Origin: a virus
Taxonomy: Duplodnaviria > Caudoviricetes
DNA length: 56,426 nucleotides
IMG/VR virus record: IMGVR_UViG_3300020408_000007
Coordinates: 1 to 56,426 of that record
Direction: 5' to 3' (one strand)
Positions 20,460-56,426 of the stretch are shown piece after piece (position 1 is the first letter of the stretch; the number at the start of each line of letters is the position of its first letter). The notes beneath the pieces were generated by a model. That model searched no databases. It was not told where the DNA came from and saw only the letters and a program-made list of their open reading frames with translations. Position numbers and translations under genes: made by a program.

Positions 20460-23400
20460 TATTGCATATGTTTGATAAATTCTGCGATACCAGCCTTAAC
20501 TGGGCCGCCTTTTGCCATTCCTATTTGAGGCCCCGCATATTTAAATATGTTAGTAAAAACATCTTCAATATCCATTTCGCCTCGTTTCACCTTCCTAATA
20601 TTTTTGCTTAATTCCCTTTCAGAAGTCTTTTTTGTGTGTCGCCTATTTAAAAGAGCTTGAGACGGACCCGCACCTTCTGTCGCTTTTAGAGGAATATTTC
20701 TTTCTCTTAAAACATCTAAAGCAAGCAAAGGATGGTCCTCTGCAGTTGCAGGAGGGGCAAACATGTCAGAATCTTCATATAAATCAAATAATTTACCTTT
20801 TGTTTCAGGGTTTCCCAGTAAATTAAAATACACATTACTTGAACGATTTGGGTCCGCACCTTCTTTTTGAGAACGGCCCGCAGCATAAAGAAGAGCTGCA
20901 TACCCCTCTATTCCAAATTCTTCAATTAGTTTCTCTGGGGAGGCATTATCAAGTAATAAATTAGCTTGAAAATTACTCTCTACGGCTTCTGCAAACTCAT
21001 TAGCACGAGATTCTACTTCTCCCCCCTTCTGCATAAAAGGAATAAACTTGGCTATTCCTGCTTTTACATGACCGCCTTTTGCAAACTCCTGTGGCTGGTT
21101 CGTGGGCCGCGTTTCGGTCAACGCCGCCCCTGTACCAATGCCCACGGTCCCCGCAAAACCGTATTTCTTTAAAATATCTAAAGTAGCCGCATCAAAAACA
21201 ACGTAATTATAATCGTCTGCTCCGGGGTCTAACCTATCGTACCGCGTACCACGGGTTGAATACTTCGTTCCTTTTATGCCGTTATTGTTCAATAAAATAG
21301 AAATACGCGGGTCATCTAAACTAGAACCACCATAGAATTTGGCAATGGACAACAGAACTCCCTGACCGTCAGCCCGCCCCCGTTCGACCTCCTTAATCAA
21401 CTTCTCATCGCCAATCTTACGAGCGATTGCTGAAACCTTTTCACGAACAGCAGGGTGCTGGTCCTCCATTGAGCGATAGAAATCAATCATTTCGGTACGC
21501 GGATCAATGTCCATAGCTACTTGCATAAGCGTACCGTCAGAAGGTCCAAGACCTATAACCTCAAAACCATCTCGCTCCACACCCGTCTTCTCATCAACGT
21601 GAACTGCGTTTTTCAAACGTAAAGTTTTACCGTCATCGAAAGCGTAGTCTGTAAAGCCCCCGGTTAAATTTGTATTTACATTGTCCTCGCCAATGCCATA
21701 AACCAATTCATCGAGCAAATTTGAGAACTCTTCGTTATCTTCAACAAAAAGCTTTGGTCTTCCTGTGTCAGGGTCTGTCACACGATCTGTGTTAAACCGT
21801 CCAACAACCATGTTCAAATCGTCTTCATCTGCAAAAGGGTCTAACTCTTTGCGAAAACCTACGTTGCGTTTGTATGTTTCGCCCACCTGACGAAGATCCG
21901 AAAGATAAATACCATGACCAAACATGTTTGCTCCTTCACCTGTCTTTACATAGTGAAGATCAAACTTATCAAAATCAGTTCCTGCCCCGTGCCAAGTCTC
22001 AACTTTACGGCGACGAGCGGCTTCATTTATTTTTGGAACCATGCCCTGAATGCCGCCTTTACCTGTTGGGTACTGAACTCCCATAGGGCCGACTTCTTTA
22101 ATTACGTCCTGCATGTCAAAGCCGCCTGGAGCAAACACTTCGATAGGAGCGGTCGCAGCTCTCATTTTGAGCTCATATAGTCGGCCATCTATTCTCTCTA
22201 ATGCAGCAGGAGAAGTAGCCTTTCGTCGCGAACTTTCCAATTCACGAATTTCCGCAAACAGCTTCTCCCTTTCCTCAGAGCTTCGAGCAACCTTTTCCCC
22301 AATTATTCTTAAATAATTTCTATAAGAGTCTTCAGTAATGCCCAAAGCTTTCATTACTTTTTGTTGTTTTTGTATCGCGCCTTGATATCTATTAGCCATT
22401 ATTTCTTTAGCGCGAGCCAAAACTTCTTCACGCATAGCGAGATTATTAGGATCTAATTTAGCCCCTTGGTACATGGGACCTGGATAAACCATCGCACGAG
22501 AACGCATGTTATTGGGCATATTATTTTGCGAAAGAATATCATCACGAGCCATGTTTAAAGCTTGATAAATTCTACCATTTTCGCTTTGGGGGTTTGCCTG
22601 CGATAAGTTGCCCATACTGTAGGTTCCTTGATCAAGGCCAATTCTTAGGTTCCGGTCAACTTCATCTAGGCGTTTTACAAACTCATCAGAAACTTTTTGA
22701 TAATCAGTCAGAGTAAAAGCCATGCCCCCTTGAGGTAAGCCCTCTACGTCTTGCAATAAATGCTGTAACTCGTGGATCATAATGCTTCTAAATTGATCTG
22801 GGTCACTAGAATCAAGCTGATCTGCTCTTATTGTAATGCGGTTATCATACGAACTATAATGACCTAATTCGCCATTTGGGGTCGTTTCAGAAATACGAAG
22901 TTGATATTGATTGATGAAATCCCCATACGCCTGCATAATAGGGTGGTCAGAAGGCAAATGCTCTGACAAAGGACTGTCAAAGAATTTTCCAAAGCCAGGT
23001 TCTGTCGGAAGGCTTATGTTATTGTCTAAATAAGAAATAACATTCCCCCCATCCAAAGATTCATAATTAAAAAAGTCGTACATGTCATGGACAATGCTTT
23101 CCGTTGGGGCGTCTGTCCCAAAATTAATATCGGAAAGATCTGCTTCAAATTCAGTGTAAAAAGTTACGGTTGGTTTTCCGTCTGCGTTATATATAATGGA
23201 GGGCCCTGTTCCAAAGCCTGTTTGCTTTTTTGTCTCTCTGAAAATATCATCCGCTAAAGAGTAAACATTTTCTTCGTTTGCAAAGTCAGCTTTTTTTGCC
23301 TTGTATAACTTTTCAGCTAATTCTCTTGATTTTGTAATTTCAGGAAAAGCTCTAGCCGCCTCTTCGCCACCCATCATTTCTGTCCTTGACGTGTCGGGCA

Positions 23401-23878
23401 AATCTTGATCCGGGGACCGTGGTACGGGAACTATCTGTCCGTCAGGTGTGACCGCGACAGGAGTATTTTTGTTTTTCATATATTTTATAAAGCTTGCAAT
23501 GCCGTCACTTAAAAGATCCGCTCCTTTAGCGGTGGCTATCTCCCCCAAACCTAGAGCACCCCCCACAAAACGTGCATCATCCCGCATTTTTTGGCGTAAC
23601 TCTGTAGGGGCTTTGCCAAAAGTTTTCTCCCTTAAAAGCTCAGAGCCCGCTATTTTATCTAGCCCCTGCATTTGTTGAAGCATCAAAATATTTGATGTGA
23701 CTGGAGGTAGAGAAGCAGCCCCTTTGCCTACTAATCCTGCAATATCAGCAAAGCTGCCTAAAAGTTCCGGCCCCATTCCTTCCAAAAGACCTTTAAGGGT
23801 TTCTATGCCCTCACCTGTACGGTCATACCCTTCCGGGTATCTTCGGGACGGTACTAAAGAAATTTTTGATTCAGCCAT
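20459..23878 (-). CDS. Large polyvalent-type protein (HExxH metallopeptidase-like + ADP-ribosyltransferase-like domains)
   Basis: IMIHELQHLLQDVEG; WHGAGTDFDKFD...GEGANMFGHGIYLS; GIKGTKY...NYVVFD. Confidence 0.6.
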   Translation of the reverse strand: MAESKISLVPSRRYPEGYDRTGEGIETLKGLLEGMGPELLGSFADIAGLVGKGAASLPPVTSNILMLQQMQGLDKIAGSELLREKTFGKAPTELRQKMRDDARFVGGALGLGEIATAKGADLLSDGIASFIKYMKNKNTPVAVTPDGQIVPVPRSPDQDLPDTSRTEMMGGEEAARAFPEITKSRELAEKLYKAKKADFANEENVYSLADDIFRETKKQTGFGTGPSIIYNADGKPTVTFYTEFEADLSDINFGTDAPTESIVHDMYDFFNYESLDGGNVISYLDNNISLPTEPGFGKFFDSPLSEHLPSDHPIMQAYGDFINQYQLRISETTPNGELGHYSSYDNRITIRADQLDSSDPDQFRSIMIHELQHLLQDVEGLPQGGMAFTLTDYQKVSDEFVKRLDEVDRNLRIGLDQGTYSMGNLSQANPQSENGRIYQALNMARDDILSQNNMPNNMRSRAMVYPGPMYQGAKLDPNNLAMREEVLARAKEIMANRYQGAIQKQQKVMKALGITEDSYRNYLRIIGEKVARSSEEREKLFAEIRELESSRRKATSPAALERIDGRLYELKMRAATAPIEVFAPGGFDMQDVIKEVGPMGVQYPTGKGGIQGMVPKINEAARRRKVETWHGAGTDFDKFDLHYVKTGEGANMFGHGIYLSDLRQVGETYKRNVGFRKELDPFADEDDLNMVVGRFNTDRVTDPDTGRPKLFVEDNEEFSNLLDELVYGIGEDNVNTNLTGGFTDYAFDDGKTLRLKNAVHVDEKTGVERDGFEVIGLGPSDGTLMQVAMDIDPRTEMIDFYRSMEDQHPAVREKVSAIARKIGDEKLIKEVERGRADGQGVLLSIAKFYGGSSLDDPRISILLNNNGIKGTKYSTRGTRYDRLDPGADDYNYVVFDAATLDILKKYGFAGTVGIGTGAALTETRPTNQPQEFAKGGHVKAGIAKFIPFMQKGGEVESRANEFAEAVESNFQANLLLDNASPEKLIEEFGIEGYAALLYAAGRSQKEGADPNRSSNVYFNLLGNPETKGKLFDLYEDSDMFAPPATAEDHPLLALDVLRERNIPLKATEGAGPSQALLNRRHTKKTSERELSKNIRKVKRGEMDIEDVFTNIFKYAGPQIGMAKGGPVKAGIAEFIKHMQ

Positions 23879-25328
23879 AATATGCGCGGACCTGAGTATG
23901 CTTATCTTCGTCTATGTCCCAATCGTCCGTGGGCAGCGATACAAAGTTACCTTGCCGATAACGCATCAACGCTTGGGTCATGCTGTCAACAAGGTCATCA
24001 TACTCTCCATTTGGAAACGCTGCAACTTCTTCAATAAGCTCATCGGCAAAGGTTTCATCAGGGGCGTACACCATGCCTGCCTCAAACAAAGGCGAGACCG
24101 CATGTACCCTTGAAACCTTGTCATTACCCCGTGATGGAGAGAAGTTAACAACAGGAATGCCGATATTGCGTAATTCATGCGTTAAAGGCATACCAGAAGC
24201 TTTCGCCTCAATTATCACCGTTTCTGGCTCCCAGAAGTTGTATTGATCCCAAGCTACCTGTTTTAACTCAGGAAAATCCCACCGCCCCTTCTTACTGTCT
24301 AACAAAATTAACCCTCTAGGGCCCCCAGCCTCCTCTGGCCTGAAGACACCCCAAGTTGTGATTGCAGAAAAATCCGCTGTCTCCTTCTTTGAAAACGCAG
24401 TATCATAGCTCTGTATTACATACTCAAGATTGGGCACATCCTCTTTTTCCCACCTTTGCCACCACTCTCGTGGTATAATAGCGTTTTCCTCGCCCGTGGG
24501 CCGTTGTTGGTACTGAGCGTTCCATTTCGAGGGCGGAATGGACGCTTTTACCTTCTCTAAATCATCTTTTGACCAAAACTCAGGCCATGTCGGGTCCCCA
24601 TCATCTAACAAAGCAGGCAGCTCAACTATCTCCCACTGGTCCGCTTTGGGGTCTTTATTCATCTGTCGTATAAGTTGCCCGGTCAAATCCTTCTGAGACC
24701 ACCGCGTCATAACCAGAATGATAGACCCACCCGGCTGTAGTCTCTGTCGGGGGCCCCCAGTATACCAATCCCAAGCGTCATCAAACCCGTTATTCGACAT
24801 CGCAGTCTGCTCAGAATGTGGGTCGTCAATGATAACAAGGTCTCCCCCGCGACCCGCAAGGTTTGATCCCACGCCAACCGCATAATACGTGCCGCCCCTG
24901 GCGGTATCCCAACGACCAGAAGCTTTACTGTCGGCTGAAAGCTTGGCTTCAGGAAATATTTCTGTGTAATCTTCCCTGTCCAAAAGGTTTTTGACCTTAC
25001 GACCAAAGCCTACGGCAAGCTCTGTGGTGTGCGTCGCCTGTATTATTTTCATATTTGGATTGCGGCCTATAAACCATGCAGGCAGAAAGTTCGACGCAAA
25101 CTCAGACTTTGTATGTCGCGGGGCCATGTTGATAATAAGTCTCTTGAGGGACCCATCAGCCACCCTTTGGAACTTCTCTGCGATGATTTTGTGATGCTCA
25201 CCTGCTATGAACTCAGGCCACATGGCGCGAACAAAGGTCAGGAAATCCTTGCGACAGGAATCTATCCTATCTAATTGAGCTAATCTTAACTGAAGTTTGA
25301 CCGCTCTATCTCTTGCGTCTTCACTCAT
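23871..25328 (-). CDS. terL: Terminase large subunit
   Basis: LIINMAPRHTKS (Walker A), LVIIDDPH (Walker B), VMTRW, QSYDTAFS and YDDLVDSMTQAL nuclease motifs. Confidence 0.95.
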   Translation of the reverse strand: MSEDARDRAVKLQLRLAQLDRIDSCRKDFLTFVRAMWPEFIAGEHHKIIAEKFQRVADGSLKRLIINMAPRHTKSEFASNFLPAWFIGRNPNMKIIQATHTTELAVGFGRKVKNLLDREDYTEIFPEAKLSADSKASGRWDTARGGTYYAVGVGSNLAGRGGDLVIIDDPHSEQTAMSNNGFDDAWDWYTGGPRQRLQPGGSIILVMTRWSQKDLTGQLIRQMNKDPKADQWEIVELPALLDDGDPTWPEFWSKDDLEKVKASIPPSKWNAQYQQRPTGEENAIIPREWWQRWEKEDVPNLEYVIQSYDTAFSKKETADFSAITTWGVFRPEEAGGPRGLILLDSKKGRWDFPELKQVAWDQYNFWEPETVIIEAKASGMPLTHELRNIGIPVVNFSPSRGNDKVSRVHAVSPLFEAGMVYAPDETFADELIEEVAAFPNGEYDDLVDSMTQALMRYRQGNFVSLPTDDWDIDEDKHTQVRAYYG

Positions 25329-25540: not shown

Positions 25541-25656
25541 CTCCTTTGCAGGGTTTTACCTTCATTATATGCGATATTTTATATAATGATATCATTTTTT
25601 TACCTATTGTTTGTGAAAAACATGGACTACGTCGTCCTCTGGCGATCGCCCCTGGA

Positions 25657-25672
25657 CGTCAATTTTTTGACG
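25657..25672. promoter_or_regulatory. Palindrome CGTCAA-TTTT-TTGACG (operator family B)
   Basis: Perfect arms; same architecture as three copies at 31795-31840. Confidence 0.55.
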
Positions 25673-25806
25673 CGGGCCGTAAACCATTGTTTTTGCTTAA
25701 AATTAAGTCTACACGGGCCCCGATCAATAAAACTGGATCAATCGTTAAAAACTAGATGCAGCGTGTCATGATCCGTGGCGCAGCTCCCACAATTCACTAA
25801 CAATCG

Positions 25807-25827
25807 ATCACGGATCACGGGTCATGG
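25807..25827 (-). repeat. Inverted heptad array CCATGAC-CCGTGAT-CCGTGAT
   Basis: Only exact minus-strand match I found to the dispersed YCGTGNNCCGYG motif. Confidence 0.6.
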
Positions 25828-25965
25828 CGTCCAGTGATAGGTTTACAGCTCCGCCAGTTCGGCCCGTTGGGCAAGTTATCTGCTTTTATGTCACGGCTGC
25901 ACCTCGGATTCCGACGCGGGAAAGTCGAATTTCAAGCCGATCGATGTATAAACACCCGCCGATCG

Positions 25966-26161
25966 ATCACGAGCTCGACGAGAATCAAGCAATTTTTGGC
26001 ATTTTTTGGCAATTAAGTGCGTCTGGCGGGAAAAATCGAGGTGCAGCGCGATGAATTTATTGATTTTGAGCAAAAAACCGCAAAAACTGGCTAAAAACTG
26101 CGATTTTCAGGCTGATCAGCGTGTAAACATACGACAATTAATCACGAGCTCGACGAGAATC
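25966..26161 (+). repeat. 21-bp perfect direct repeat ATCACGAGCTCGACGAGAATC (25966-25986, 26141-26161)
   Basis: Read directly from the sequence; 175 bp apart in non-coding DNA. Confidence 0.85.
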
Positions 26162-26193
26162 GCGTTAAAATGGGCCTATTTTTAACAAAAGAC

Positions 26194-26221
26194 AAAAAAA
26201 GGCCCGCCATATAAGCGGGCC
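26194..26221 (-). terminator. Intrinsic terminator
   Basis: GGCCCGC-7nt-GCGGGCC followed by a U-tract on the minus strand. Confidence 0.8.
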
Positions 26222-29975: not shown

Positions 29976-30401
29976 TTATACAACAAATGTCAAGTCTAAA
30001 AATTCTTGCCAATTTATTGGATTAGAAAATTTAAACTGGGGCTCTAACAACAATCCTCTGTCCACCAACTCAATTGCTTGTTCCCCGTTATAGACAAAAA
30101 TGTCTGCATTTTTTGTGTGTACAAAAATATAAGTTGGGGCGTGTTTGTGCTGAGTCATCCAAGACACTTGGTGTGGAGATAACCGGACGGCAGAGCCCTT
30201 TGTTGTTTTTAACTCTACAAAATAAAATTTTCCCAATTCAGAACAAACGACAAGATCAGGCACACCAAGAGAAGCCCAACTCTCCAAACGGGTGAGTCGG
30301 ATATTAGGCCGACACTTCTTCTGATGTTTCCGAAATTTCTGATAAAAGCTCGACTCCAGATTTTTCTTCTTCTGGGGTGATGTTGATAATATCGTGTCCA
30401 T
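29976..30401 (-). CDS. PD-(D/E)xK nuclease (VRR-NUC / resolvase-like)
   Basis: RLESWASLGVPDL...FVELK...LSPHQVSW; start uncertain. Confidence 0.75.
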   Translation of the reverse strand: MDTILSTSPQKKKNLESSFYQKFRKHQKKCRPNIRLTRLESWASLGVPDLVVCSELGKFYFVELKTTKGSAVRLSPHQVSWMTQHKHAPTYIFVHTKNADIFVYNGEQAIELVDRGLLLEPQFKFSNPINWQEFLDLTFVV

Positions 30402-30867
30402 GCTGGTCTTTTAATTCCTGCAAAGCCTTTTCAACTTCTTCACGAGACATGCTGTCAATCGACCCATGTCTAATTTCAGACTTATTAATGTAAATATTTC
30501 CCTGAGCCTGCCCCCTACGATATTCAGCTTGGACGGCTGCAGAGTATGCCCCATTTTCAATAGCCAGGTCACGTATGCGCTGCATGTCACGGACATGACG
30601 GGCAAAAGTAATGCCGTACTTTTCATCCAACTCTGCCCTGTATGCTTTTATAGCAGCTACAACATTTGGGTGCATGTTTGAATTAGTAAGCTCAGAAGCT
30701 TTCACATGTGCAGACTTTTCAGGATAGCCTGCATTTATAGCGGCTTGACGTTTTGTAATCATACCGTCGTTTGCAACAAACTCTTTCACAAACTTCTCTT
30801 GTTTGGGCGTCAGAGGAGTTTCTATGCTTTTACGAGGTCTACCTCTAGATTTTTTGACGACTTGCAT
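30304..30867 (-). CDS. terS: Terminase small subunit
   Basis: LTPKQEKFV...AAINAGYPEKSAHVKASEL helix-turn-helix pattern. Confidence 0.75.
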   Translation of the reverse strand: MQVVKKSRGRPRKSIETPLTPKQEKFVKEFVANDGMITKRQAAINAGYPEKSAHVKASELTNSNMHPNVVAAIKAYRAELDEKYGITFARHVRDMQRIRDLAIENGAYSAAVQAEYRRGQAQGNIYINKSEIRHGSIDSMSREEVEKALQELKDQHGHDIINITPEEEKSGVELLSEISETSEEVSA

Positions 30868-30934
30868 TGTAGCCCTTTATATAGCTTCCTATCCTAAAAC
30901 TAAATGAATAAAGCTATTTTGGCAACCAATAGGA

Positions 30935-31199
30935 AAAAAGTTACATGTTACAAAAAAAGTTACAAAATTATTTTTGTATATATATGTTATTATTGTAGAA
31001 ATTGCCTGTGTAACATTTTGATCATTTGAATCGCCTTAAAAAAATGAAAAAAATATTTTTTTGTTAAATCTGTACATATATAAGTTTCACAGCAAGCAAC
31101 CCCTTATCCAGCAAGGGTTACAGCGTAACTTTTTTGTGTTTGAAAAGTGTTACAAAAGTTACACCCTGCTCTGGTCATCGCAACAGAACAGGGTGTAAT
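30935..31199. repeat. AT-rich region with GTTACA iteron-like repeats
   Basis: GTTACA at 30940, 30947, 30959, 31117, 31149, 31158; inverted copies at 31009 and 31124 (one mismatch); hairpin 31159-31198. Confidence 0.7.
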
Positions 31200-31275
31200 T
31201 GTCAATCAACAGCAGAATGGAGATTCTTGCATACATAACCCTAGTCCGTGGGCCGTGCATCGTCAAGTTTTTTTT

Positions 31276-31662: not shown

Positions 31663-31730
31663 GACAATCCCTTTCTCCGGAGAAGCTCTCCGGTGCTGGT
31701 TAGTTATTCACAATGTCAAACATCAGCTAT

Positions 31731-31759
31731 AGTATACAACTTATCCCATACAATGTCAA
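31731..31759 (-). promoter_or_regulatory. Leftward sigma70-type promoter
   Basis: TTGACA-17-TATACT; family A site at 31733-31750. Confidence 0.8.
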
Positions 31760-31794
31760 GTAAAAAATTTTTAAAAAACTAATCATTTCAACAC

Positions 31795-31840: not shown

Positions 31841-31868
31841 TGACAATGTATGGGCGTTGTGGTATACT
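31840..31868 (+). promoter_or_regulatory. Rightward sigma70-type promoter
   Basis: TTGACA-17-TATACT. Confidence 0.8.
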
Positions 31869-31945: not shown

Positions 31946-32542
31946 GTGACTTGCCTTATGATAGAGCCTGTGTCCAATATGACAGCTAACCATGCTGTTT
32001 GTAATTGGCACAGACACAACGACCCGTTGCCTGACTTACACCTGTCGTTTTGTTATGGTCTGTATGAGTATAACAGATTGGCTGGAGCTGGCATCGGCTG
32101 CAAGACATTGTTAGGTGTTGCTATGGTAGGTAATCCTTGTGGTAGACCAACGGGCCCGGACCGCAAGCTTATCCTTGAAATTAGAAGGGTATGTTTTAAG
32201 CCTGGGGTCAAGTTCCATCAATTGCGTCGTTATTATACAGACAAAATTTTTAAAGATGAAATGTCTAAAAGAGTTATGCCTGTACTGGTTCGCAACTTAG
32301 ACGGGACGCAGCCGTTTGCTCAAGGTAATGCCATCAATGCTTACACTGTGCCAAGCTTCTTTCTTCGCGTCGCAGAGTTTTATGTAAAACAAAAATTTAC
32401 AAATATCAAAAAACTGTGGACGTACATACAGGAGACAGAGGACGGCAGATATATCAGTGAAGCTGGCTATCACATAGACCATTATGTGAAGAGCCGTGGG
32501 CCGCGACACGTCGCAAAGTTACGGTTTGCTAAAGAACTTTAA
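31946..32542 (+). CDS. XF1762-family / Mom-like GNAT-fold protein
   Basis: WHRH..P, GVAMVGNPCGR, LEIRRVC, LWTYIQETEDG....AGY; AAGGAG before the GTG start. Confidence 0.5.
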   Translation: MTCLMIEPVSNMTANHAVCNWHRHNDPLPDLHLSFCYGLYEYNRLAGAGIGCKTLLGVAMVGNPCGRPTGPDRKLILEIRRVCFKPGVKFHQLRRYYTDKIFKDEMSKRVMPVLVRNLDGTQPFAQGNAINAYTVPSFFLRVAEFYVKQKFTNIKKLWTYIQETEDGRYISEAGYHIDHYVKSRGPRHVAKLRFAKEL

Positions 32543-33676: not shown

Positions 33677-34365
33677 TGCGGTTAATATGTAGATATGTTT
33701 GTGTCGATGATCCCGTGCCGGAAGGCTGGACGTTACACAAACTATATGGTCATCATGGTGCAAATGGATATGGAGTAATTACAATGGCTGACAACAGAGA
33801 AAAGGATGATTTCTATCCAACGCCTCCTGAAGCCACAAAGGCTATGATGGCCCGTTGTCCGTGGTTAAAGTTGCCTGAAGAGGGGAACAAGTATGCCATA
33901 TGGGAGCCCGCGTGTGGCGAAGGTCATATGTCAGAAGTTTTTAAAGAAGCAGGGTTAAGCACATACAGCACGGATCTCGTGGACCGTGGTTATGGTGACG
34001 CTCACGGTGTAGATTTTTTAATGGAGCAGAAGAGCTTTGCTCCGTGGATAATTACAAACCCTCCGTATAAGCTTGCCAATGAGTTTGTAAAACATGCGTA
34101 CAAACTCCAGGTTGAGAACAAGCAGGGCGAAGGGTTTATATTTTTGTTGCGACTAGCATTTTTAGAGGGACAAAAACGGTATACAGAAATTTTTAAAGAT
34201 ATGCCGCCCAGTAAAGTGCTAGTGCATACAAAGAGGCTGACCTTGATTCGGGGCGACCACGAAGAAGCGTGGTATGGTTCGGGCAAGACAGCTATGGCGT
34301 GGTTTGTCTGGGAGATAGACCCATTTACGAAAGAAGGGGCTCAGCCCCGCATTCAATGGTTATAA
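33676..34365 (+). CDS. DNA amino-methyltransferase (N6-adenine type)
   Basis: DFYPTP, WEPACGEGHM (SAM binding), DFL, ITNPPY catalytic motif; true start may be ATG 33784. Confidence 0.8.
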   Translation: MRLICRYVCVDDPVPEGWTLHKLYGHHGANGYGVITMADNREKDDFYPTPPEATKAMMARCPWLKLPEEGNKYAIWEPACGEGHMSEVFKEAGLSTYSTDLVDRGYGDAHGVDFLMEQKSFAPWIITNPPYKLANEFVKHAYKLQVENKQGEGFIFLLRLAFLEGQKRYTEIFKDMPPSKVLVHTKRLTLIRGDHEEAWYGSGKTAMAWFVWEIDPFTKEGAQPRIQWL

Positions 34366-41930: not shown

Positions 41931-43385
41931 ATGCAAAAATATAAGTTCAAAACCAAACCGTATGAGCATCAAAAAACGGTCTTGGAAGATTCGTGGTCCG
42001 CGAGTAATTATGCTTTATTTATGGAAATGGGGACAGGCAAATCGAAGATTGCAATAGACACCATCGGAGCCTTGTTCGAGGACGGTAAGATCGACACAGC
42101 GTTCATTGTTGCTCCAAAGGGTGTCTTTCACAACTGGTCACAAAAAGAAATTGTAGCGCATTTGCCAAACCACATACAGCGCAAGGTCCTTAGTTGGCAA
42201 CCTAACATTACAAAAACTTTTAAAAGTCAGTTTGAAGAGTTCTGTAAGAATACTGATGAGCTACGTATATTTGTTATGAACGTAGAATCGTTTAGCACGA
42301 GTAAAGGAGCTACGACGGCTGAATGGTTTGGGAAGAATTTCGGTGAAAAGGGTATGATGGTTGTTGATGAGTCTACAACAATAAAGAACCGAAAAGCTGC
42401 CCGGACTAAAGCTGTTGTAAAGACGGGGGAGTTATTCGCATATAAGCGTCTCCTGACAGGCTCCCCCGTCACCAAATCACCTATGGACCTTTACTCTCAG
42501 TGTGAGTTTTTGGGCCAAAGCATGTTGGGTTTTCCAAGCTATTTTGCGTTCCAGGGTAGATATGCGGTTCTGCAAAGACGCACAATGGGGCATAGATCTT
42601 TTCAACAAATTGTTGGGTTCCAAAGATTAGAAGAGCTCAATGCCAAACTCGATGTATTCAGCAGGCGTATCTTAAAAAAAGAATGTTTGGACCTGCCTGA
42701 AAAGATATATGTCAGACGCGAGGTAGACCTCACAGACGAACAGAAAAAACTGTATACACAAATGTCAAAGCTTGCACTCGCTCAATTGCGGGACGGCAGT
42801 CTGGTCAGCACCAACAATGTACTTACGCAGATTATGCGCTTACAACAGATCTGCTGCGGGTTTATCAAGAATGATGATGACTTGATTAGTGAAGTAAAAT
42901 CTAATCGACTTCACGAGCTTGTGAATATCTGTGAAGAAACTACTGGCAAAGTCATTATATGGGCAACTTTTGTTCACGATATTGAGAAAATTTGTGACAT
43001 GCTCACAAAAGAATTTGGCATAGAAAGTTTTGGTGCGTTCTACGGGGCAACCGCGCAGGAGCAAAGGCAAGAAATTGTAGACCAGTTTCAAGACCCCAAT
43101 TCAAACATGCGCTTCTTTGTAGGTAACAGCCGCACTGGTGGGTTTGGTTTAACTCTAACAGAGGCCAGCACCGTGGTGTATTACAGCAATAATTATGACC
43201 TTGAGATAAGGCTGCAGTCAGAGGATAGAGCGCACCGCATTGGTCAAAAGAATAATGTAACTTATGTGGACCTCGTTAGCCCCAAAACAATTGACGACAA
43301 GATATTGACGGCTTTGCAAAATAAACAGAACATTGCAAATATGGTTTTAGGTGAGGAAATAAAAGAATGGTTCGAAACAGAGTAG
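41931..43385 (+). CDS. SNF2-family helicase
   Basis: EMGTGKS, VDES, LTGSP, GGFGLTLT, QSEDRAHRIGQ; start at ATG 41931 (AAGGAG upstream). Confidence 0.9.
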   Translation: MQKYKFKTKPYEHQKTVLEDSWSASNYALFMEMGTGKSKIAIDTIGALFEDGKIDTAFIVAPKGVFHNWSQKEIVAHLPNHIQRKVLSWQPNITKTFKSQFEEFCKNTDELRIFVMNVESFSTSKGATTAEWFGKNFGEKGMMVVDESTTIKNRKAARTKAVVKTGELFAYKRLLTGSPVTKSPMDLYSQCEFLGQSMLGFPSYFAFQGRYAVLQRRTMGHRSFQQIVGFQRLEELNAKLDVFSRRILKKECLDLPEKIYVRREVDLTDEQKKLYTQMSKLALAQLRDGSLVSTNNVLTQIMRLQQICCGFIKNDDDLISEVKSNRLHELVNICEETTGKVIIWATFVHDIEKICDMLTKEFGIESFGAFYGATAQEQRQEIVDQFQDPNSNMRFFVGNSRTGGFGLTLTEASTVVYYSNNYDLEIRLQSEDRAHRIGQKNNVTYVDLVSPKTIDDKILTALQNKQNIANMVLGEEIKEWFETE

Positions 43386-45083: not shown

Positions 45084-45602
45084 TTATGCTTCCCTCATTT
45101 CAAGCGCAGCTTCTAAAGTCTCTTCGTTGCGACGCAGCCAACCTTTACCAAAGGTATCAAAAGTTTTCAAAGAGCGATAGTAGTCCGCACGGTTTTTTGC
45201 CAGTGCATTTAATAGGACAACCGTGTCTGTGTCCTTAATACGAGCCATTGTCCGTGGTCCGATAACGCCGTCCTCTTTGGCCCCAACCAAGGACTGTAAC
45301 ACACGGGCGGGGCGTCCTGGTCCGCTGTTCACGGCCCAATCAAAAGTGGCTAAGTCTAACCCTGTATCAAGCTCGTCTGCCATGACACGATCCCAATAGT
45401 TCTTTTTATAAATTTCCTGCACATGCTCTTCGGAAATGTTCTTCAGTTCATCTACATCTTCCAAGGGACGACCCAAAAACTCTGCATAAGTTTTGTGTGT
45501 TATGCCCTTGTTGGTTGCGCCACCGGGGTCGCTAGGATGATCCACAAATCCTCCTTCGTGGTGAAGTATCAAGCTTAAACTGTAAAAGAAGTTTGCTTCC
45601 AT
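45084..45602 (-). CDS. Endolysin, glycoside hydrolase family 108
   Basis: HEGGFVDHPSDPGGATNKGIT, FDWAVNSG, FGKGWLRR. Confidence 0.9.
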   Translation of the reverse strand: MEANFFYSLSLILHHEGGFVDHPSDPGGATNKGITHKTYAEFLGRPLEDVDELKNISEEHVQEIYKKNYWDRVMADELDTGLDLATFDWAVNSGPGRPARVLQSLVGAKEDGVIGPRTMARIKDTDTVVLLNALAKNRADYYRSLKTFDTFGKGWLRRNEETLEAALEMREA

Positions 45603-49399: not shown

Positions 49400-52071
49400 T
49401 AAAAATCCCCGAGAGGTTGGGTATTTCGTCTCAACTGGTTAGCACTGCCTTGCTTTTGTCCCGTGAGACCAAAGTTGTCAGCTAATTGAGACCAATTAGA
49501 TTGCAATTGAGTTAACTCACGGATGCTGTCCTTTAAACGCTCAACCCGGTCTTGGCTTGTTAATGGGTCGGCTAAAGCGGACTCTTTCAAATCAATAGCA
49601 TCCTGCAGTCTTGCAGTCATTTTTTCAGAATTTAAACGAACTTTTTGCGTAGTTAAAAACGGACTGCCGGGATTAAATAACAGACTACTTATTTCTCGTC
49701 TAAGTCCTTCAGAATCTTTGCCAGCTAATTCTTTTAAGGCAGCAGTCTTAGTTTGATTCATGAGATAATTCATGCTTTCTACGGCCTCTGCTGATTCAGG
49801 ATTCTTGGGAATAAAGTTTCCGCCGAAAGCTTCTACAAGTACACCAAAACCACCATCAACTAGAGTTCTTCCCATCCAATCAGTAAAACCAATGGCGTCT
49901 TCCATATTAACACCAGATTCTTCTGCGCTTAAAATAATATTTGGTTTTTTAAAGCGGGCGACAACTGACTCAAAAGGGTCAGTTTGAGGCGGCAAGAGCC
50001 CATAATCTGAGAAGTTGGGGTCTTTCTGTCTTGCTTTAGCAATAGCACCAATCACATAATCAGGCACTGCATTTTTCTGTACAACTACACCGCCACTTCC
50101 ATCAGGGTTGGGGACTAGAACGCTTGATGACTGTATTGCTGCCAAATTAGTATCAAAATCCATTTGCATCTGTGGGGTCCACTCTTGGTCCTGCCCACTT
50201 GCCCAAGCGTCCAATTTTAATGCAAGAGGTTGAATATTGGCGTAAGCGTTCTTTTTAGTAACGTCCTTACTTGGTTTTTCTGGTAAATAATATGCCCCGC
50301 CAGTTTGATCAGGATTGAGAGCTGCTAACATTTCAGCATCGTTTTTAACTAACTTCATTTCACCTGCTTCATTAAACATGGGCAGAGGGTCAAAGTTGCT
50401 TGCAACAATAACGCTACCTGTTGGGAACAGCGCAACAGCTTTGTTGCCCAAAGTCTTTATCATATCCTTATTGAATGGAAAGAAGTCCTGTTGAATAAAC
50501 TGATTGTATTCATCTGGAGTTTTTGCGTATTTCTTTTCAAATCCAGTTCCGTCAGCTTTTGGCTTCACAAGCACTGTAGTTACGAAGTCTTCAGGTGTAA
50601 TGGTAGAAAAGCCTTGGGCATTGAAATTATTTAAATCACCTTCAGTGAAGGCAATTTTCTCTTCCCGTTTGCCGTCATCACCAATTTTAAACATAGCCTT
50701 TGGAGTTGAAAGTTTACCTCTATCATAATTGGTGCGACTGACGAGTGAAGTCCGTCTGGTTTTCAACGTCTTTAACTCGTCTGTGCTCATGGGCGGTATG
50801 GCGTCTCCAGCGTTATAAACTTTGCCGCCTATTGTTACAGGCTCAGACGCAATTAAGTCACTTGTTATAGGAGAGGTATCCTCTTTCACAAGCTTGAATA
50901 AAGTTCTTGAAGTACCTAAAGAGCTTAGTTCATTAGACCCAAGGCTTATCTCGTCTCCAGGGTTTATTGTTCCAATTCCTGGAAGAGTTAAGGGCTCCTC
51001 GCCTTCGTATTTATATTCGGCCTGTGCCCCAGCAGCTTGAGGTTTTGGAGGGTCTTTTACTTCTTTTAATTGCGTTCTTATAGACTTGAATACAGTGTTT
51101 AACTCATTTCCTCCAATTGGAAAGGTCTGACCCGGCTGTATAGTTCCTACACCAGGAATATCAGCGGGTTCTTTGCCTTCGTATCTGTAATCTTTAGTTG
51201 TGCCTGCACCAAGCGGTTTTTGAGGTTTTGGTGTGCCATCTTGTATTTTTATGCCACCCCGAAATACATCATATTCAGGATTAACCGCTTCTATCTTTTG
51301 AGACGCTGTATACTGATCGCTTGCCATGTCCAGAGCAGCGGCTTTAGCAGCAGCTTCACGCTTATTCTTTGCTTCTCTTACCGAAGCACCAGAAGTAGCC
51401 AATAAGGGACCAATAGGCATCAAGGCTTCTGCAACGGGAACTCCTTGTGCTATTTGCAATCCTGCAGGGGCTAAACCTCCTAACAGAAGGTTAGCCAACG
51501 CCTGTTTTCTGTCTGCCTCTTCATCCCCGCCGTAAATCTGACGAGCTAACTCTAAGTTTTTATTATAAAAATCCATTAGCTTAGGAGAAGAGGGGGCAGC
51601 TTTACCCCTTCCGCCTGCCATGCCCTGCTGTATTGCGTTCATCAAAGGCTGCGTTATTGTCTGGGCTTGACCCCCGTTACTAAACTTTTGCACGATACCT
51701 TGTGTCATCTCCTTGGTCACAGGAGTGTCCATAGCCCGTTGCGCTATTTGACCAATACCTTGGTCAACAGGGGCCTGTGCCTCACGCATCTGCATTACAG
51801 GCTGTACCAACGTAACCACAGATTCAGGTGTCTTGTTAGCGTCCTTCATGCCCACAATGCCGCCAAGCTCCTGCCTGCGCTCCTTCATGGTGCGCTCATC
51901 ACCGCGCATCGCGTTCATTAATTCTACAGGGTCCTTTGCTGCAGCAATGCCGCCCATTGCGTCAGACATGACTTTTTCGCCAGCCTTTTTCATCAGCATT
52001 TGCTCTGCTTGCTTTACTGGCTGATCCGTGGGCCGTGAGCCGCGAAACATGTTTCTGTCATAAACAGACAT
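49399..52071 (-). CDS. Internal virion protein with repeats
   Basis: MSVYDRNMF start, AKTPESV-like motif, repeated beta modules. Confidence 0.5.
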   Translation of the reverse strand: MSVYDRNMFRGSRPTDQPVKQAEQMLMKKAGEKVMSDAMGGIAAAKDPVELMNAMRGDERTMKERRQELGGIVGMKDANKTPESVVTLVQPVMQMREAQAPVDQGIGQIAQRAMDTPVTKEMTQGIVQKFSNGGQAQTITQPLMNAIQQGMAGGRGKAAPSSPKLMDFYNKNLELARQIYGGDEEADRKQALANLLLGGLAPAGLQIAQGVPVAEALMPIGPLLATSGASVREAKNKREAAAKAAALDMASDQYTASQKIEAVNPEYDVFRGGIKIQDGTPKPQKPLGAGTTKDYRYEGKEPADIPGVGTIQPGQTFPIGGNELNTVFKSIRTQLKEVKDPPKPQAAGAQAEYKYEGEEPLTLPGIGTINPGDEISLGSNELSSLGTSRTLFKLVKEDTSPITSDLIASEPVTIGGKVYNAGDAIPPMSTDELKTLKTRRTSLVSRTNYDRGKLSTPKAMFKIGDDGKREEKIAFTEGDLNNFNAQGFSTITPEDFVTTVLVKPKADGTGFEKKYAKTPDEYNQFIQQDFFPFNKDMIKTLGNKAVALFPTGSVIVASNFDPLPMFNEAGEMKLVKNDAEMLAALNPDQTGGAYYLPEKPSKDVTKKNAYANIQPLALKLDAWASGQDQEWTPQMQMDFDTNLAAIQSSSVLVPNPDGSGGVVVQKNAVPDYVIGAIAKARQKDPNFSDYGLLPPQTDPFESVVARFKKPNIILSAEESGVNMEDAIGFTDWMGRTLVDGGFGVLVEAFGGNFIPKNPESAEAVESMNYLMNQTKTAALKELAGKDSEGLRREISSLLFNPGSPFLTTQKVRLNSEKMTARLQDAIDLKESALADPLTSQDRVERLKDSIRELTQLQSNWSQLADNFGLTGQKQGSANQLRRNTQPLGDF

Positions 52072-54340: not shown

Positions 54341-54564
54341 TATGCAACCTTTATTGTGCCACCATCATTATACAGTGCCCCTGTCTCAAGTCCAGTGGCA
54401 GACGTAGGTAAGTCAGTCAAAGTTATGGTAGAAGCTCTTATCGGTCCAGGATTACGCTCCTGCTCAATAAAAGTCTGTATTGCCCGCACCAAATCCACCA
54501 GGTAATTTTGTTCATATTCTGGCGGTGGTTCAGGTAATCTTGGTGGCGGTTGAGTGCTTGCCAT
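54340..54564 (-). CDS. Small virion protein
   Basis: PRLPEPPPEY...LPTSATGLETGALYNDGGTIKV. Confidence 0.55.
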   Translation of the reverse strand: MASTQPPPRLPEPPPEYEQNYLVDLVRAIQTFIEQERNPGPIRASTITLTDLPTSATGLETGALYNDGGTIKVA

Positions 54565-56426
54565 TATCTCCTGCCATCTTGTCTGACATCTACCCTTGGG
54601 CTACCCAGCTTCCATTTAGACCCTATTGCATCTGATTCTACACGAAGTGCAAAGGAACGTCCACGAACTCTTACATCTAATTGATTTGTAAATTTTTCAA
54701 CAGGAACAGAGGCGGTGCGAATCGCCGGAACCGCTGAACTTTGGTCAAAATCTGCTCCAGGATAATTACGACCTTTTATTGTAAAAGTTGCCTGTGGCGA
54801 AGACAAAGCAACCGAACCATCAAATGTTAAATCAGGAATTACTCTGCTCACATAAGTGAACCTATCCCCGTCACCAATGTCTATGCCTGCAGATTCAATG
54901 AATGAGTTCATGGCGGTGCCGTCGTCGTCATAGCCAAGCTCATGGTTGTAAAGAAAACCATCTGCCGTGGCTAAGGGAAAGAGCCGTGTGCCGCGATCCA
55001 ACCACGCTGTTCTAGAAAGTGTGCCAAAATACCAAACTTTTTCGCTATAATTAAAGGTTACATACTTGTCATTTTCAGAAGCACTTTCAGATGGATAAAA
55101 CCAAATTACCTCACTAAACTCTGTATTCACTCCCACCACTACTTTATTTCGTTCCTCAAGGTTGAAATCCAAAAATACTTTGTCGCGAACAGTGCAAGGT
55201 AGGGTTTGAGTGCGACCGTCATAAACGTAAAAAGTATCAATGCCCATCCAAAAAACAAAATCTTCTGTCGCTGCGGCTGCATTTGGGCTCATAATAGTAA
55301 TATTACTTGAAATTTGTTGAAGACCAAACACGTTTGGCTCCCCTACAAATCTCATTGACGTCAGTGCGGTGTCTGTCCAAACAAGTATTTCACGTTTTGT
55401 TTCAATAGCTTGCATAAAAGTAGATCCTGCACCTAAAGGTAAAGTTCCTGCCGTATTGTTTACAGTCGGGAAAAAATCTGTGGGCAGTTCTCTTGATGAA
55501 AATCTTATTAAAAGCGGGTCTTGTATGCCGTTTCCATTTATGTCAGAAGCACTTGAGCCTATGTCATCTGCGCCAAAAGCAATAACATGACGTTGTGTGT
55601 CTGAAACTAGAACTTGTTTGCATTTAGTAGGAATGCTTGTTCTTGTTCCCGGTCGAGTGTTTAATGGAATTGCACGAGAGGCCAGTGTGCTTGTCCTGTC
55701 CCAATAGTATATTTGGTCATCTCTTGGATTTAATATTAAATCTTCAACAAAGTTATCGTGAGACCATAATCTTATTTGATTACGAGTAGTAACCCCTCCA
55801 GATGCAGCGTCACCCCACCCGGCAAAGTCATTAATTGGGTCAGCATTACCTTTTGCTAACCGCACAATAGAACCGTCAGCGTGAGTTGCAGCTACAGTCG
55901 GGCCAAAAGTATTGACGTTTGAACTTGTTTGAGTACCTGCATACCCTCTTGTGCACCCAGTCAAATCATTTGTAACCGCTGTAATTGTAAAGGTTACGTC
56001 ATTAAGAGGGGTTGCACCACCTAACGTGTTACCAGTTATTGTAATAGTGTCCCCAACTGCGTAACCACTCCCAGCGGTGGTTGCGGTGACTGACGTGTAT
56101 GTTGTTGATCCTGCAACAACAGTAAATTCTGCGCCTGTGCCGCTGCCGCTTGTGCTTGCTTGAGCCTTACCTGTATGCGTGGCTGCTCCAGCCGATCCAC
56201 CAGAGGCTGTTATAGATCCTACTGTTTTGACACCAGTGCTTGATACGCCGCCTACAAGTATAAGCTCATTGTCTATTAAGATTACATCATTGGCAACTAT
56301 ACCAGTTGTGCTAGTCAGTGTAATTGTGGTGTCAGAGGAGCTAAGAGTTCCACCTTCGTTCAAGGTTGTTTGTAAAGCACCAGAAGTAACCCCGTAATAT
56401 TGTCCAGCACCCCAACCTGTACCTCC
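54564..56426 (-). CDS. Tail tubular B / stabilisation protein, 5'-truncated by the window end
   Basis: RLWSHDNF.EDL, LLIRFSS, ILVWTD, GTLSRTAW, DIGDGD, KWKLGSPR; the frame stays open to the window end. Confidence 0.7.
   Translation of the reverse strand, partial: GGTGWGAGQYYGVTSGALQTTLNEGGTLSSSDTTITLTSTTGIVANDVILIDNELILVGGVSSTGVKTVGSITASGGSAGAATHTGKAQASTSGSGTGAEFTVVAGSTTYTSVTATTAGSGYAVGDTITITGNTLGGATPLNDVTFTITAVTNDLTGCTRGYAGTQTSSNVNTFGPTVAATHADGSIVRLAKGNADPINDFAGWGDAASGGVTTRNQIRLWSHDNFVEDLILNPRDDQIYYWDRTSTLASRAIPLNTRPGTRTSIPTKCKQVLVSDTQRHVIAFGADDIGSSASDINGNGIQDPLLIRFSSRELPTDFFPTVNNTAGTLPLGAGSTFMQAIETKREILVWTDTALTSMRFVGEPNVFGLQQISSNITIMSPNAAAATEDFVFWMGIDTFYVYDGRTQTLPCTVRDKVFLDFNLEERNKVVVGVNTEFSEVIWFYPSESASENDKYVTFNYSEKVWYFGTLSRTAWLDRGTRLFPLATADGFLYNHELGYDDDGTAMNSFIESAGIDIGDGDRFTYVSRVIPDLTFDGSVALSSPQATFTIKGRNYPGADFDQSSAVPAIRTASVPVEKFTNQLDVRVRGRSFALRVESDAIGSKWKLGSPRVDVRQDGRR

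Follow-up and report, generated by a model that had tools for sequence, protein, structure and literature searches.

The window analysed here, the whole 56,426-nucleotide stretch of DNA, is a near-complete HTVC023P-type podovirus. The landmarks are the genes for the two terminase subunits, with the non-coding DNA upstream of each, and a primase gene:

23871..25328, minus: terminase large subunit (TerL)
25541..26200: 660-nt non-coding region upstream of a 71-aa ORF and TerL, containing the TerL-upstream array
25766..25779, plus: unit pair TCATGAT-CCGTGGC, facing the minus-strand array; inverted repeat TGATCCGTG ... CACGGATCA
25807..25827, minus: three-unit array CCATGAC-CCGTGAT-CCGTGAT, in the same region
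25966-25985 and 26141-26160: two exact 20-nt direct repeats, in the same region
26201-26221, minus: terminator-like hairpin of the TerL-upstream non-coding region
30304..30867, minus: terminase small subunit (TerS), SF6/SPP1 type (Pfam Terminase_2, E 1.2e-8)
30868..31245: AT-rich non-coding region upstream of TerS, with 7 of the window's 33 copies of GTTACA, all within 30940-31163
31246..31266, plus: three-unit array CCGTGGG-CCGTGCA-TCGTCAA, oriented opposite to TerS and 380 nt upstream of its start
38836..40389, minus: AEP (archaeo-eukaryotic-type) primase, a candidate motif reader (PHROG primase, E 5e-96; Pfam AEP-TOTE, E 1.9e-12)

Dispersed through much of the window are sites built from the same 7-base unit as the arrays. 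G001, G004 and G005 are related genomes:

21100..21111, plus: two-unit site TCGTGGGCCGCG, within the 1139-aa gene 20459-23878 (minus); kept as CCGTGGGCCGTG in G001 and G004
24494..24505, plus: two-unit site CCGTGGGCCGTT, within TerL; kept in G001, lost in G004
32494..32505, plus: two-unit site close to the 3′ end of plus-strand gene 31946-32542 (weak Mom-like family match)
33977..33988, plus: two-unit site within plus-strand DNA methyltransferase gene 33676-34365; retained in relatives that have 75-82% flank identity
36456..36467, plus: two-unit site within PolA (35195-37090, minus); only free position 6 changes in relatives with 77-86% flank identity
38291..38302, plus: two-unit site CCGTGAGCCGTT, within helicase gene 37304-38836 (minus)
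41991..42002, plus: two-unit site within the plus-strand SNF2 helicase gene; shifted upstream by one heptad in the G004 lineage
45252..45263, plus: two-unit site CCGTGGTCCGAT, within glycosyl hydrolase 108 gene 45084-45602 (minus)
52026..52044, plus: three-unit site CCGTGGG-CCGTGAG-CCGCG, over the first codons of an 890-aa gene; a site is present at the equivalent place in G005 despite a different encoded peptide
54984..54995, plus: two-unit site within virion structural gene 54564-56363 (minus)

The motif YCGTGNNCCGYG has nine plus-strand copies and one minus-strand copy in the window. The initial annotation had reported nine exact plus-strand matches, at 21100, 31246, 32494, 33977, 36456, 41991, 52026, 52033 and 54984, and all are present, as are the triple at 52026-52044 and the unrelated encoded peptides it described (SRGPRH, LVDRGY, SWSASN, SRPTDQ). 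Its near matches at 13995, 23410, 23927, 24494, 33852, 37522, 37529, 38291 and 43420 lie one mismatch from YCGYGNNYCGYG, that at 40967 is an exact YCGYGNNYCGYG, and that at 45252 fits YCGTGNNCCG. It missed the minus-strand copy at 25809-25820, part of the three-unit array at 25807-25827.

The total of 10 copies on both strands compares with a mean of 0.19 in dinucleotide-preserving shuffles, none of 100 of which reached 10; the annotation's estimate of about 0.1 exact copy per strand by chance was thus right. When codons were shuffled in 76 ORFs, by exchanging synonymous codons or by changing codon order, the observed plus-strand counts were reached in 0 of 1000 shuffles of each kind. Shuffles that keep both protein sequence and codon usage gave a mean plus-strand count of 1.2, part of which is an intergenic copy left unshuffled, against the 9 observed. 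Such shuffles, a count of the opposite strand, a search of relatives and a conservation test at the copies had all been proposed with the initial annotation, and each gave a positive result: relatives carry analogous motifs of 7-base period, and the copies show fewer substitutions at core positions.

The 7-base spacing is specific. For YCGYG-gap-YCGYG, a gap of 2 yields 11 plus-strand and 1 minus-strand hits, whereas other gaps from 0 to 24 yield at most 2 per strand. In an unbiased scan of all dyads (4-mer, gap, 4-mer), ranks 1-3 are all the heptad motif, the best dyad being CGTG-N1-GCCG (8 versus 0, Poisson p 9e-9). Strand bias in the window alone is modest (9:1, binomial p 0.021; 12:1 for a wider set of sites, p 0.0034). 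All 12 plus-strand sites lie between 21 and 55 kb and none between 1 and 21 kb; with the missing part, some 25 kb of the genome is free of sites on either strand. CGTG in the first unit is invariant in the 12 sites and is followed by G in 8, A in 3 and T in 1, while the second unit is CCGCG in 5. Sites fall in three reading frames and in genes of both orientations, two being intergenic; three in minus-strand genes share a frame and encode RPT.

These results support the heptad motif as a DNA-level, orientation-dependent cis-signal, independent of coding and of gene direction. What appears in the window as a 12-mer is a heptad of the family, YCGTGRN, in its smallest form of two units. This is new in this analysis, and literature searches found no published description of it.

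Relatives with as little as about 55-63% PolA identity keep both motif and polarity. Substitutions are fewer in core bases than in their flanks, and sites turn over among relatives, new ones being gained. The motif is maintained by selection.

Family arrays were collected by an IMG/VR search with CCGTGNNCCGTGNNCCGTG, for which 120 matches were listed, 88 of them showing homology to window proteins. The family has at least 95 arrays, each of 3-14 units, and they recur in two places. An array upstream of TerL occurs in at least 27 family loci, mostly 180-750 nt upstream and in TerL's orientation; the window's copy is 25807..25827, kept in G001 and G004. An array upstream of TerS occurs in at least 26, mostly 314-690 nt upstream and in the orientation opposite to TerS; the window's copy is 31246..31266, with counterparts at 20972-20993 in DSL-LC04 and 32207 in G005. 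Across the family, the base after CGTG is G or A in at least 306 of the 354 distinct dyads listed.

In the window the wider set of sites stands at 12 plus to 1 minus, yet minus-strand arrays occur between TerL and TerS. Among family loci chosen blind to the motif, sites above TerS number 73 plus and 4 minus, and those below it 2 plus and 12 minus: motif polarity switches at TerS. Sites in the TerL-TerS interval run along sense transcription and those above TerS against it. Polarity diverges at one point and converges at another, which the densest arrays adjoin, and the leftward domain is only about 5 kb. The proposal of an oriented cis-signal in the initial annotation stands as to its DNA-level nature and its indifference to gene direction, and calls for correction as to confinement to one strand, since polarity flips at the terminase genes. 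This flip is not visible from the window alone.

More distant clades carry other tandem, GC-rich repeats in the TerL-TerS interval: G006-G008 have arrays of TCCCGAA, and 023Pt_psg01 has five copies of GGGCCCACCCNCCCC. In DSL-LC04 the first unit is CCTTG. The near-complete contigs of the group break at different points along the map. All 24 public runs listed for this DNA are archived as contigs.

Among the phage proteins, TerS matches the SF6 small terminase 3zqp (E 9.9e-6) over its N-terminal DNA-binding domain, and its PDB matches 3zqp, 4zc3 and 2cmp have E-values from 1e-5 to 2e-4. The AEP primase has no PDB sequence match. In the 37 of 76 ORFs scanned with Pfam and PHROGs, no nuclease besides TerL and no extra DNA-binding protein was found.

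Two groups of known phage elements resemble the heptad in different respects. Phage tf has 14 of 14 nick sites on one strand, unevenly placed, and 61 tf-like phages show a net strand excess of 9.0 against 0.7 expected, with sites concentrated to one side when the genome is oriented by terL and found in coding sequences as well as between them (PMC3517423, PMC11780129). The heptad is like the nick motifs of tf/Rembedalsseter (WACTRTGAC), phiKMV-like phages and T5 in occurring about a dozen times per 45-60 kb podovirus genome, nearly on one strand, in genes and between them, and unevenly relative to terL; like them it is kept across nucleotide-dissimilar relatives and its consensus drifts between clades. 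Motif and polarity retained across related phages, with uneven placement relative to terL, are among the features of a nick motif, and the heptad has them. Unlike those motifs it repeats directly in tandem at a strict 7-base period, builds arrays of 3-14 units and changes strand between TerL and TerS; nicking here is a prediction. The accessible portions of the literature on nicked phages contain no mention of opposite-strand arrays.

The other group is the pac sites of SPP1 and SF6. One study describes SPP1 pac as sets of direct repeats across promoters and the start of the TerS gene, and reports that the SF6 TerS DNA-binding domain bound pac DNA with little sequence specificity (PMC4737164). 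The heptad shares with these sites a common TerS family and direct repeats in non-coding DNA upstream of TerS, both of which are among the features of an SPP1/SF6-type pac. The differences are that the heptad is dispersed genome-wide with a common orientation and that the SF6 domain, so far as described, is little sequence-specific. The pac repeats known to us are local, and we know of none dispersed genome-wide with a common orientation.

Our tentative preference is for a packaging-linked terminase signal, perhaps marking strand-specific nicks like those of T5 and tf. A phage-encoded protein would read heptads in tandem, the proposed reader being the packaging machinery. The SF6/SPP1-type small terminase would anchor itself, as at a pac site, by binding the longer arrays, one of which lies upstream of TerS at the place of the SPP1 pac repeats and the other upstream of TerL. 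The dispersed two-unit copies, co-oriented relative to DNA passing through the terminase motor, would be secondary contacts met in one-directional packaging, and a nick in one strand is predicted at them, giving localized single-strand interruptions as in T5, phiKMV and tf. The terminase as reader, packaging as the directional process and the making of nicks are all what we infer. The differing repeats of the clades in the TerL-TerS interval fit a reader co-evolving with its sites, and contigs breaking at different map points fit permuted, headful-packaged DNA.

Several points count against a terminase signal. A simple nick site would not be expected to form dense arrays of up to 14 units, and the low sequence specificity described for the SF6 domain weighs on the same side, as do the lack of opposite-strand arrays in the accessible accounts of nicked phages and the finding of no nuclease besides TerL, and no extra DNA-binding protein, in the 37 ORFs scanned. 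The switch lies beside an AT-rich, repeat-bearing non-coding region that would also be expected of a replication origin, and the GTGG/GTGA core fits AEP primases. The fixed position of the arrays by the terminase genes may merely reflect conserved gene order.

That core makes initiation by the phage's own AEP primase a close rival, and a possible explanation. The sites would be its initiation sites, and the origin would be the AT-rich TerS-upstream region with its flanking arrays; right-hand plus and left-hand minus copies would be lagging- or displaced-strand priming sites of forks leaving the origin, and a fork that arrives from round the circle, rightward or by rolling circle, would use the plus copies left of TerL. 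Template 5′-GTG-3′ is recognized by the primase ORF904 of pRN1 and by the primase-polymerase of phage NrS-1, and for NrS-1 the best sites are GTGG/GTGA, synthesis starts just upstream of the site and the 8-nt site TTTGGTTA is thought to set the replication start (PMC8718748). The heptad has a corresponding GTG core followed by G or A (11 of 12 window sites), the window encodes an AEP primase, and recognition of single-stranded DNA, inherently strand-specific (PMC8718748), would explain strict strand specificity with no added assumption. The 73/4 and 2/12 counts on the two sides of TerS are the pattern expected around a bidirectional origin, and the switch falls at an AT-rich region with clustered GTTACA repeats. 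Yet the AEP primase sites known so far are 3-4 nt long and abundant on both strands, and known replicative primases likewise use sites of 3-4 nt, whereas the heptad constrains 10-12 bases, needs two units and is absent from a large part of the genome; the roughly 25 kb without sites must replicate too, and the leftward domain is just 5 kb or so. The exact periodicity of arrays with up to 14 units is more in keeping with cooperative binding to duplex DNA, and GTG is not invariant, given CCGCG as second unit in 5 of 12 sites and CCTTG as first unit in DSL-LC04. The window's primase is also a protein with no detectable sequence relative of solved structure.

Polarity that diverges at one locus and converges at another is also seen in Chi and KOPS, orientation-dependent motifs arranged around bacterial origins and dif. 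A polar signal of this kind, for a host or phage helicase-nuclease or DNA translocase, would shield DNA ends or take part in their processing, or else direct a motor to the convergence point upstream of TerL. The G-rich motif-bearing strand and the dense arrays by the convergence point agree with it, but we consider it improbable. Known Chi sequences are 5-8 nt, and in both Chi and KOPS the host's RecBCD or FtsK recognizes one short word, while the heptad is a strict two-unit structure of 10-12 specified bases. It is also phage-clade-specific; a sequence that differs between clades fits a phage-encoded reader better than a host enzyme, which makes a host Chi-like signal less likely, and no FtsK-like protein was found among the 37 proteins scanned.

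Seven-base units in multi-unit arrays in non-coding DNA are known from the omega protein of pSM19035, whose heptads serve as operators and centromere sites with a minimal site of two contiguous heptads, and from T7, with its 7-bp repeat arrays beside the terminal repeat. The heptad shares that unit, that kind of array and, with omega, that minimal site. Its sites could then be operators of a tandem-heptad transcription factor in the manner of the omega repressor, the arrays insulating or regulating promoters and the intragenic pairs acting as orientation-dependent roadblocks. The TCCCGAA arrays of G006-G008 follow terminators immediately and precede sigma-70-like promoters by 60-90 nt, in G001 the three-unit array precedes the -35 element of a strong plus-strand promoter by about 65 nt, and among the matches listed terminator-like hairpins precede 11 of 88 arrays against 12 of 528 random segments. 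Against this, sigma-70-like promoters are not enriched downstream of dispersed sites or of arrays, among the matches listed an array's longer downstream ORF runs on the strand opposite to it 50 times and on its own strand 25 times, and one roadblock rule cannot cover both the sense-facing sites between TerL and TerS and the antisense-facing ones above TerS. The omega and T7 arrays are local, unlike the heptad with its dispersed, co-oriented intragenic copies, and no ribbon-helix-helix protein or other regulator was matched by Pfam in the 27 proteins scanned. We hold an operator function to be a poor prospect.

That the sites have no positive function, being a by-product of codon usage, of amino-acid motifs such as the shared RPT, or of type III-like avoidance of inverted pairs, as in T7, which keeps all its EcoP15I sites in one orientation, is scarcely credible: it is contradicted by the protein- and codon-usage-preserving shuffles, by site gains, by core conservation and by the stereotyped array places, and avoidance would explain polarity, not the roughly 50-fold enrichment, the arrays, the gains in relatives or the conserved core.

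The element described here follows a simple grammar, in which a 7-base unit occurs at least twice in a row, arrays anchor it at two places and polarity switches at the terminase genes. Speculatively, it may be a genome-wide orientation code in an abundant marine and freshwater podovirus family, read by a phage-encoded tandem-heptad reader. In such a code, which we put forward as doubtful, two-unit sites would diverge at TerS and converge on the dense arrays upstream of TerL, giving the direction of travel of a motor or replisome. It is conceivable, if rather unlikely, that the code does for a virus what KOPS/dif does for bacteria, or that it is a network of sites at which primase starts; to our knowledge, no phage has been described with either. 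The element is directly searchable, 88 of the 120 IMG/VR matches listed being family members, and HTVC023P-type phages are among the most widespread ocean podoviruses (PMC9599517). Should the sites prove to be nicks, nicked genomes would be a phenomenon of marine phages too, now with a structured recognition site. Should they prove to be primase sites, no earlier phage would have been found to lay out long, oriented priming sites, and they would locate the origin.

The window, an entire IMG/VR virus record, is 56,426 bases long, with a completeness estimate of 93%, and most of its genes lie on the minus strand. Gene identities were taken from PHROGs and Pfam.

Window genes identified with PHROGs and Pfam
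17774-20173, portal
23871-25328, large terminase (TerL)
30304-30867, small terminase (TerS), SF6/SPP1 type
33676-34365, plus strand, DNA methyltransferase
35195-37090, family-A DNA polymerase (PolA)
37304-38836, helicase
38836-40389, archaeo-eukaryotic-type (AEP) primase
41865-43385, plus strand, SNF2 helicase
52-56 kb, ejection and structural proteins

We assign the window to the HTVC023P-type podoviruses because its closest named phages by PolA are DSL-LC04 (55% identity), 023Pt_psg01 (54%) and Pelagibacter phage HTVC023P (50%). Genome records of relatives, G001-G010 among them, were used for comparison. One of them, G001 (60.9 kb), is ~91% identical to the window and circularly permuted relative to it, and shows that ~4.7 kb is absent between the window's two ends; near-complete contigs of this phage group end at differing map points. 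The only record labelled with terminal repeats, G009, was rejected as a source of physical ends: it has only replication genes in common with the window, and its exact repeat of 127 nt may have come from overlap in the assembly instead of being a true terminal repeat. Around ten small minus-strand ORFs (160-280 aa) at 236-5450 are poorly conserved even in G001; they may be a paralogous family, since several of them share their hits in G007 and G008. In the group with 49-52% PolA identity, as seen in G007, the primase, helicase, PolA and SNF2 genes form a replication module that, set against the structural genes, runs in the opposite direction to that of the window.

The motif is the two-unit form of a tandem 7-base unit, YCGTGRN. 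The initial annotation had reported nine exact plus-strand copies of YCGTGNNCCGYG and a number of near matches, and all were recovered at the positions it gave. Its claim that the motif occupies one strand needs amending: nine copies are on the plus strand, but one is on the minus strand (25809-25820). The shuffle expectation is 0.19 for both strands combined. In shuffles within 76 ORFs, the observed plus count was reached in 0 of 1000 permutations of synonymous codons, which retain each protein and its codon usage, and in 0 of 1000 reorderings of codons. Indifference to gene direction also held: all three frames are represented, and sites occur between genes as well as inside genes of either orientation. 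Together, the two codon shuffles and the mixed frames and orientations rule out a coding artefact.

The 7-base register is specific, with 11 plus and 1 minus YCGYG pairs at a gap of 2 and at most two at every other gap from 0 to 24. When all 4-mer/gap/4-mer combinations were scanned, the three top dyads were all derived from the motif, the best (p 9e-9) surviving correction for roughly a million tests. Only the spaced pair stands out; as a single word among 5-, 6-, 7- and 8-mers the motif does not, and no conservation was found in the flanks of the 12-mer. The relaxed core YCGTGNNCCG occurs 12 times on the plus strand, always within 21.1-55.0 kb, and once on the minus strand, and ~25 kb of the genome, holding head and late genes, has no site at all. 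Two 8-mers also exceed shuffle expectation across the window, TCTAAATC (10 plus, 0 minus) and TAAGCTCA (8 plus, 1 minus); their strand bias is probably a coding-strand effect.

A 7-base-period polar motif in related phages, which the initial annotation had proposed looking for, was found. We collected 64 loci around PolA homologues, picked blind to the motif, and counted the window motif and the variant of G005 (TGGGCCGT) together.

Motif copies by PolA identity to the window; the counts are not phylogenetically independent
95% or more: strand opposite PolA 86, PolA strand 11
77-89%: strand opposite PolA 32, PolA strand 13
61-65%: strand opposite PolA 21, PolA strand 7
49-52%: strand opposite PolA 20, PolA strand 39

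The strand opposite PolA is thus in excess in every group down to 61% identity. Forward:reverse counts over whole records are 11:1 (G001), 9:0 (G002), 5:2 (G003) and 6:1 (G004). With the window's pattern G005 gives only 4:3, and a fresh scan of that genome returned GGGCCGTG as its top dyad (9 vs 1). The lake phage DSL-LC04 (51% G+C) has its own variant, CCTTGNNCCGT, with 11 plus copies and 1 minus copy over the homologous part of the map.

Conservation at the copies, a check that the initial annotation had named, is also seen. Across 11 site-relative pairs, which are not independent, substitutions per site are 0.039 at the seven core positions vs 0.151 in the flanks (12-20% diverged), and changes within the motif fall mostly at its free positions. 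Turnover of sites is also seen: the G004 lineage has gained plus-strand pairs at places that are empty in the window, and there the pair at window position 41991 is displaced by exactly one heptad. Taken together, the strand excess in relatives, core conservation and site turnover point to selection that maintains two adjacent units and their orientation.

Longer arrays of the unit mark the terminase genes. Three units make up each of two window arrays: the one that holds the single minus-strand copy, within 660 nt of non-coding DNA upstream of TerL, and the one at 31246, 380 nt upstream of TerS. In DSL-LC04, eight minus-strand pairs overlap one another upstream of TerL (14577-14818), and three plus-strand units form an array upstream of the TerS operon. 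When 2.9 million viral contigs were searched for three CCGTG units spaced 7 bases apart, at least 120 loci matched; among the 120 matches listed, 88 show tblastn homology to window proteins. At least 95 arrays were counted, 65 with three units, 18 with four and the others with up to 14. In at least 27 loci the array lies mostly 180-750 nt upstream of TerL and in its orientation, and in at least 26 it lies mostly 314-690 nt upstream of TerS and in the opposite orientation to it.

In these loci, which were selected for carrying an array and are here oriented like the window, the pairs among the matches listed number 2 plus and 88 minus between the TerL and TerS starts, and 104 plus and 27 minus above TerS (at higher coordinates). 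The motif-blind PolA loci agree, with 73 plus and 4 minus above TerS and 2 plus and 12 minus below it (Fisher p 4.8e-10), counted in the 13 of 33 mutually related loci with at least 61% PolA identity that include TerS. Polarity therefore diverges at TerS, and it converges just upstream of TerL. The divergence point adjoins an AT-rich region with 7 of the window's 33 GTTACA copies, clustered in 224 bases (30940-31163), which could be an origin or a pac component; G005 has GGTTAC repeats in the corresponding region (32218-32240).

Several other elements lie near these arrays. The non-coding region upstream of TerL holds two exact 20-nt direct repeats, ATTCTCGTCGAGCTCGTGAT, on the minus strand (25966-25985 and 26141-26160), each heading a longer similar stretch, and relatives have other direct repeats just downstream of their arrays. 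Divergent near-consensus sigma-70 promoters (minus 31759-31731, plus 31840-31868), accompanied by repeated TGTCAA and TTGAC(A/G) elements, make window 31663-31945 look like an early regulatory switch. The neighboring minus-strand gene (31276-31662) has no counterpart in G001. That genome lacks 512 bases (window 31281-31792), so the strong plus-strand promoter (window 31840-31868) has its -35 element ~65 nt downstream of the three-unit array there.

More distant clades have different repeats in the same interval. In the group with 49-52% PolA identity the CGTG motif has only 0-2 copies (G006, G007, G008 and G010). G006-G008 instead carry plus-strand TCCCGAA arrays of 2-5 exact units, in three clusters within ~3 kb between TerL and TerS, and no dispersed arrays elsewhere in the genome. 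They directly follow terminator hairpins and are 60-90 nt upstream of sigma-70-like promoters that serve small plus-strand genes.

TCCCGAA arrays in G007, with G006 and G008 arrays at homologous places
7206-7226, plus strand
8819-8853, plus strand
9780-9890, plus strand

In 023Pt_psg01 (37% G+C), GGGCCCACCCNCCCC occurs five times on one strand (15434, 16247, 17004, 17787 and 17842), always in non-coding stretches between TerS and TerL; downstream of two of the five lie AT-rich DNA and a TTGAC-type promoter. No comparable motif was found in the first 50 kb of HTVC023P, where the scan was dominated by glycine-codon repeats. Long runs of such GGTGGTGG-type triplets, from glycine-rich coding sequence in HTVC023P (~38-41 kb) and 023Pt_psg01, dominate the dyad statistics of family members with low G+C.

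In Pfam and PHROGs scans of 37 of the 76 ORFs, TerL was the only nuclease, and regulators, ribbon-helix-helix proteins included, were not found. The window methyltransferase and a Mom-like gene were rejected as readers because both are missing from the motif-bearing G005 and DSL-LC04. Gene presence and absence likewise gave no nickase or regulator: only two small uncharacterised proteins (20166-20459 and 15724-15921) are common to motif-bearing genomes and absent from others, and they match no nuclease or DNA-binding family. The former is a 97-aa acidic protein (P0001; minus strand; PHROG 13182, function unassigned), present in G001, G003, G004, G005 and DSL-LC04 and undetected in G006-G008, 023Pt_psg01 and HTVC023P; its gene in G005 holds two motif sites. 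Since these three approaches gave no reader, the candidates would be conserved proteins whose specificity has changed, of which TerS and the AEP primase are the obvious two. The primase had no match among PDB sequences.

Any explanation would require a directional process. The one that we rank first, tentatively, is a packaging-linked terminase signal, and it draws on the arrays on both sides of the terminase genes, the SF6/SPP1 type of TerS and the varied map breakpoints of near-complete contigs. The SPP1 pac site consists of direct repeats at promoters and the start of its TerS gene (PMC4737164). Nick-associated motifs of tf-like and phiKMV-like phages and T5 number around twelve copies on one strand, some within genes and some outside them; these cluster toward one side of the map when it is oriented by terL, and distant relatives retain them with a drifting consensus (PMC3517423, PMC11780129). 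This closely resembles the genome-level signature of the window motif. Given the flanking arrays, TerS type, varied breakpoints and nick-motif resemblance, strand-specific nicks, or at least terminase contacts, are predicted at two-unit sites. Against a packaging role, arrays of 14 units are unlike nick sites, and the SF6 DNA-binding domain is reported to be weakly specific (PMC4737164).

That the motif marks initiation sites of the AEP primase is the next reading, a close and similarly tentative rival. Template GTG is recognised by pRN1 ORF904 and NrS-1, the best NrS-1 sites being GTGG and GTGA (PMC8718748); in 306 of 354 family pairs the base after the core CGTG is G or A, which fits this specificity. 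Recognition of single-stranded DNA is inherently strand-specific, and an origin would account for a switch of polarity at an AT-rich region. Against a primase speak the 25 kb that lack sites, a leftward domain that is very short and the strictly periodic arrays. A Chi- or KOPS-like polar signal is weaker; it accounts for the divergence and convergence of polarity, but a host enzyme would be expected to read a shorter and less clade-specific sequence. Also weaker is a transcription-factor operator, which fits G006-G008 and G001 but fails on site orientation between TerL and TerS, and no promoter enrichment was seen downstream of dispersed sites or arrays. Chance does not explain the motif, nor do coding effects or restriction avoidance: the shuffles, site turnover, core conservation and fixed array positions exclude all three.

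In the literature searched we found no published description of the heptad element. In the available text of the main genomic paper (PMC9599517), the word 'motif' refers only to a protein, and neither 'promoter' nor 'terminal repeat' occurs. Nor was anything comparable found in literature on small terminases, pac sites, direct repeats or heptamers. Polar genome motifs and iteron arrays are known kinds of element; what is new is the grammar of tandem heptads, the pair of anchor arrays and the change of strand at the terminase genes. Heptad variants of the family are CCGTG, CCTTG, TCCCGAA and GGGCCCACCC. A clade-specific tandem GC-rich repeat in the TerL-TerS interval is a family trait, which argues for a phage-encoded reader co-evolving with its sites.
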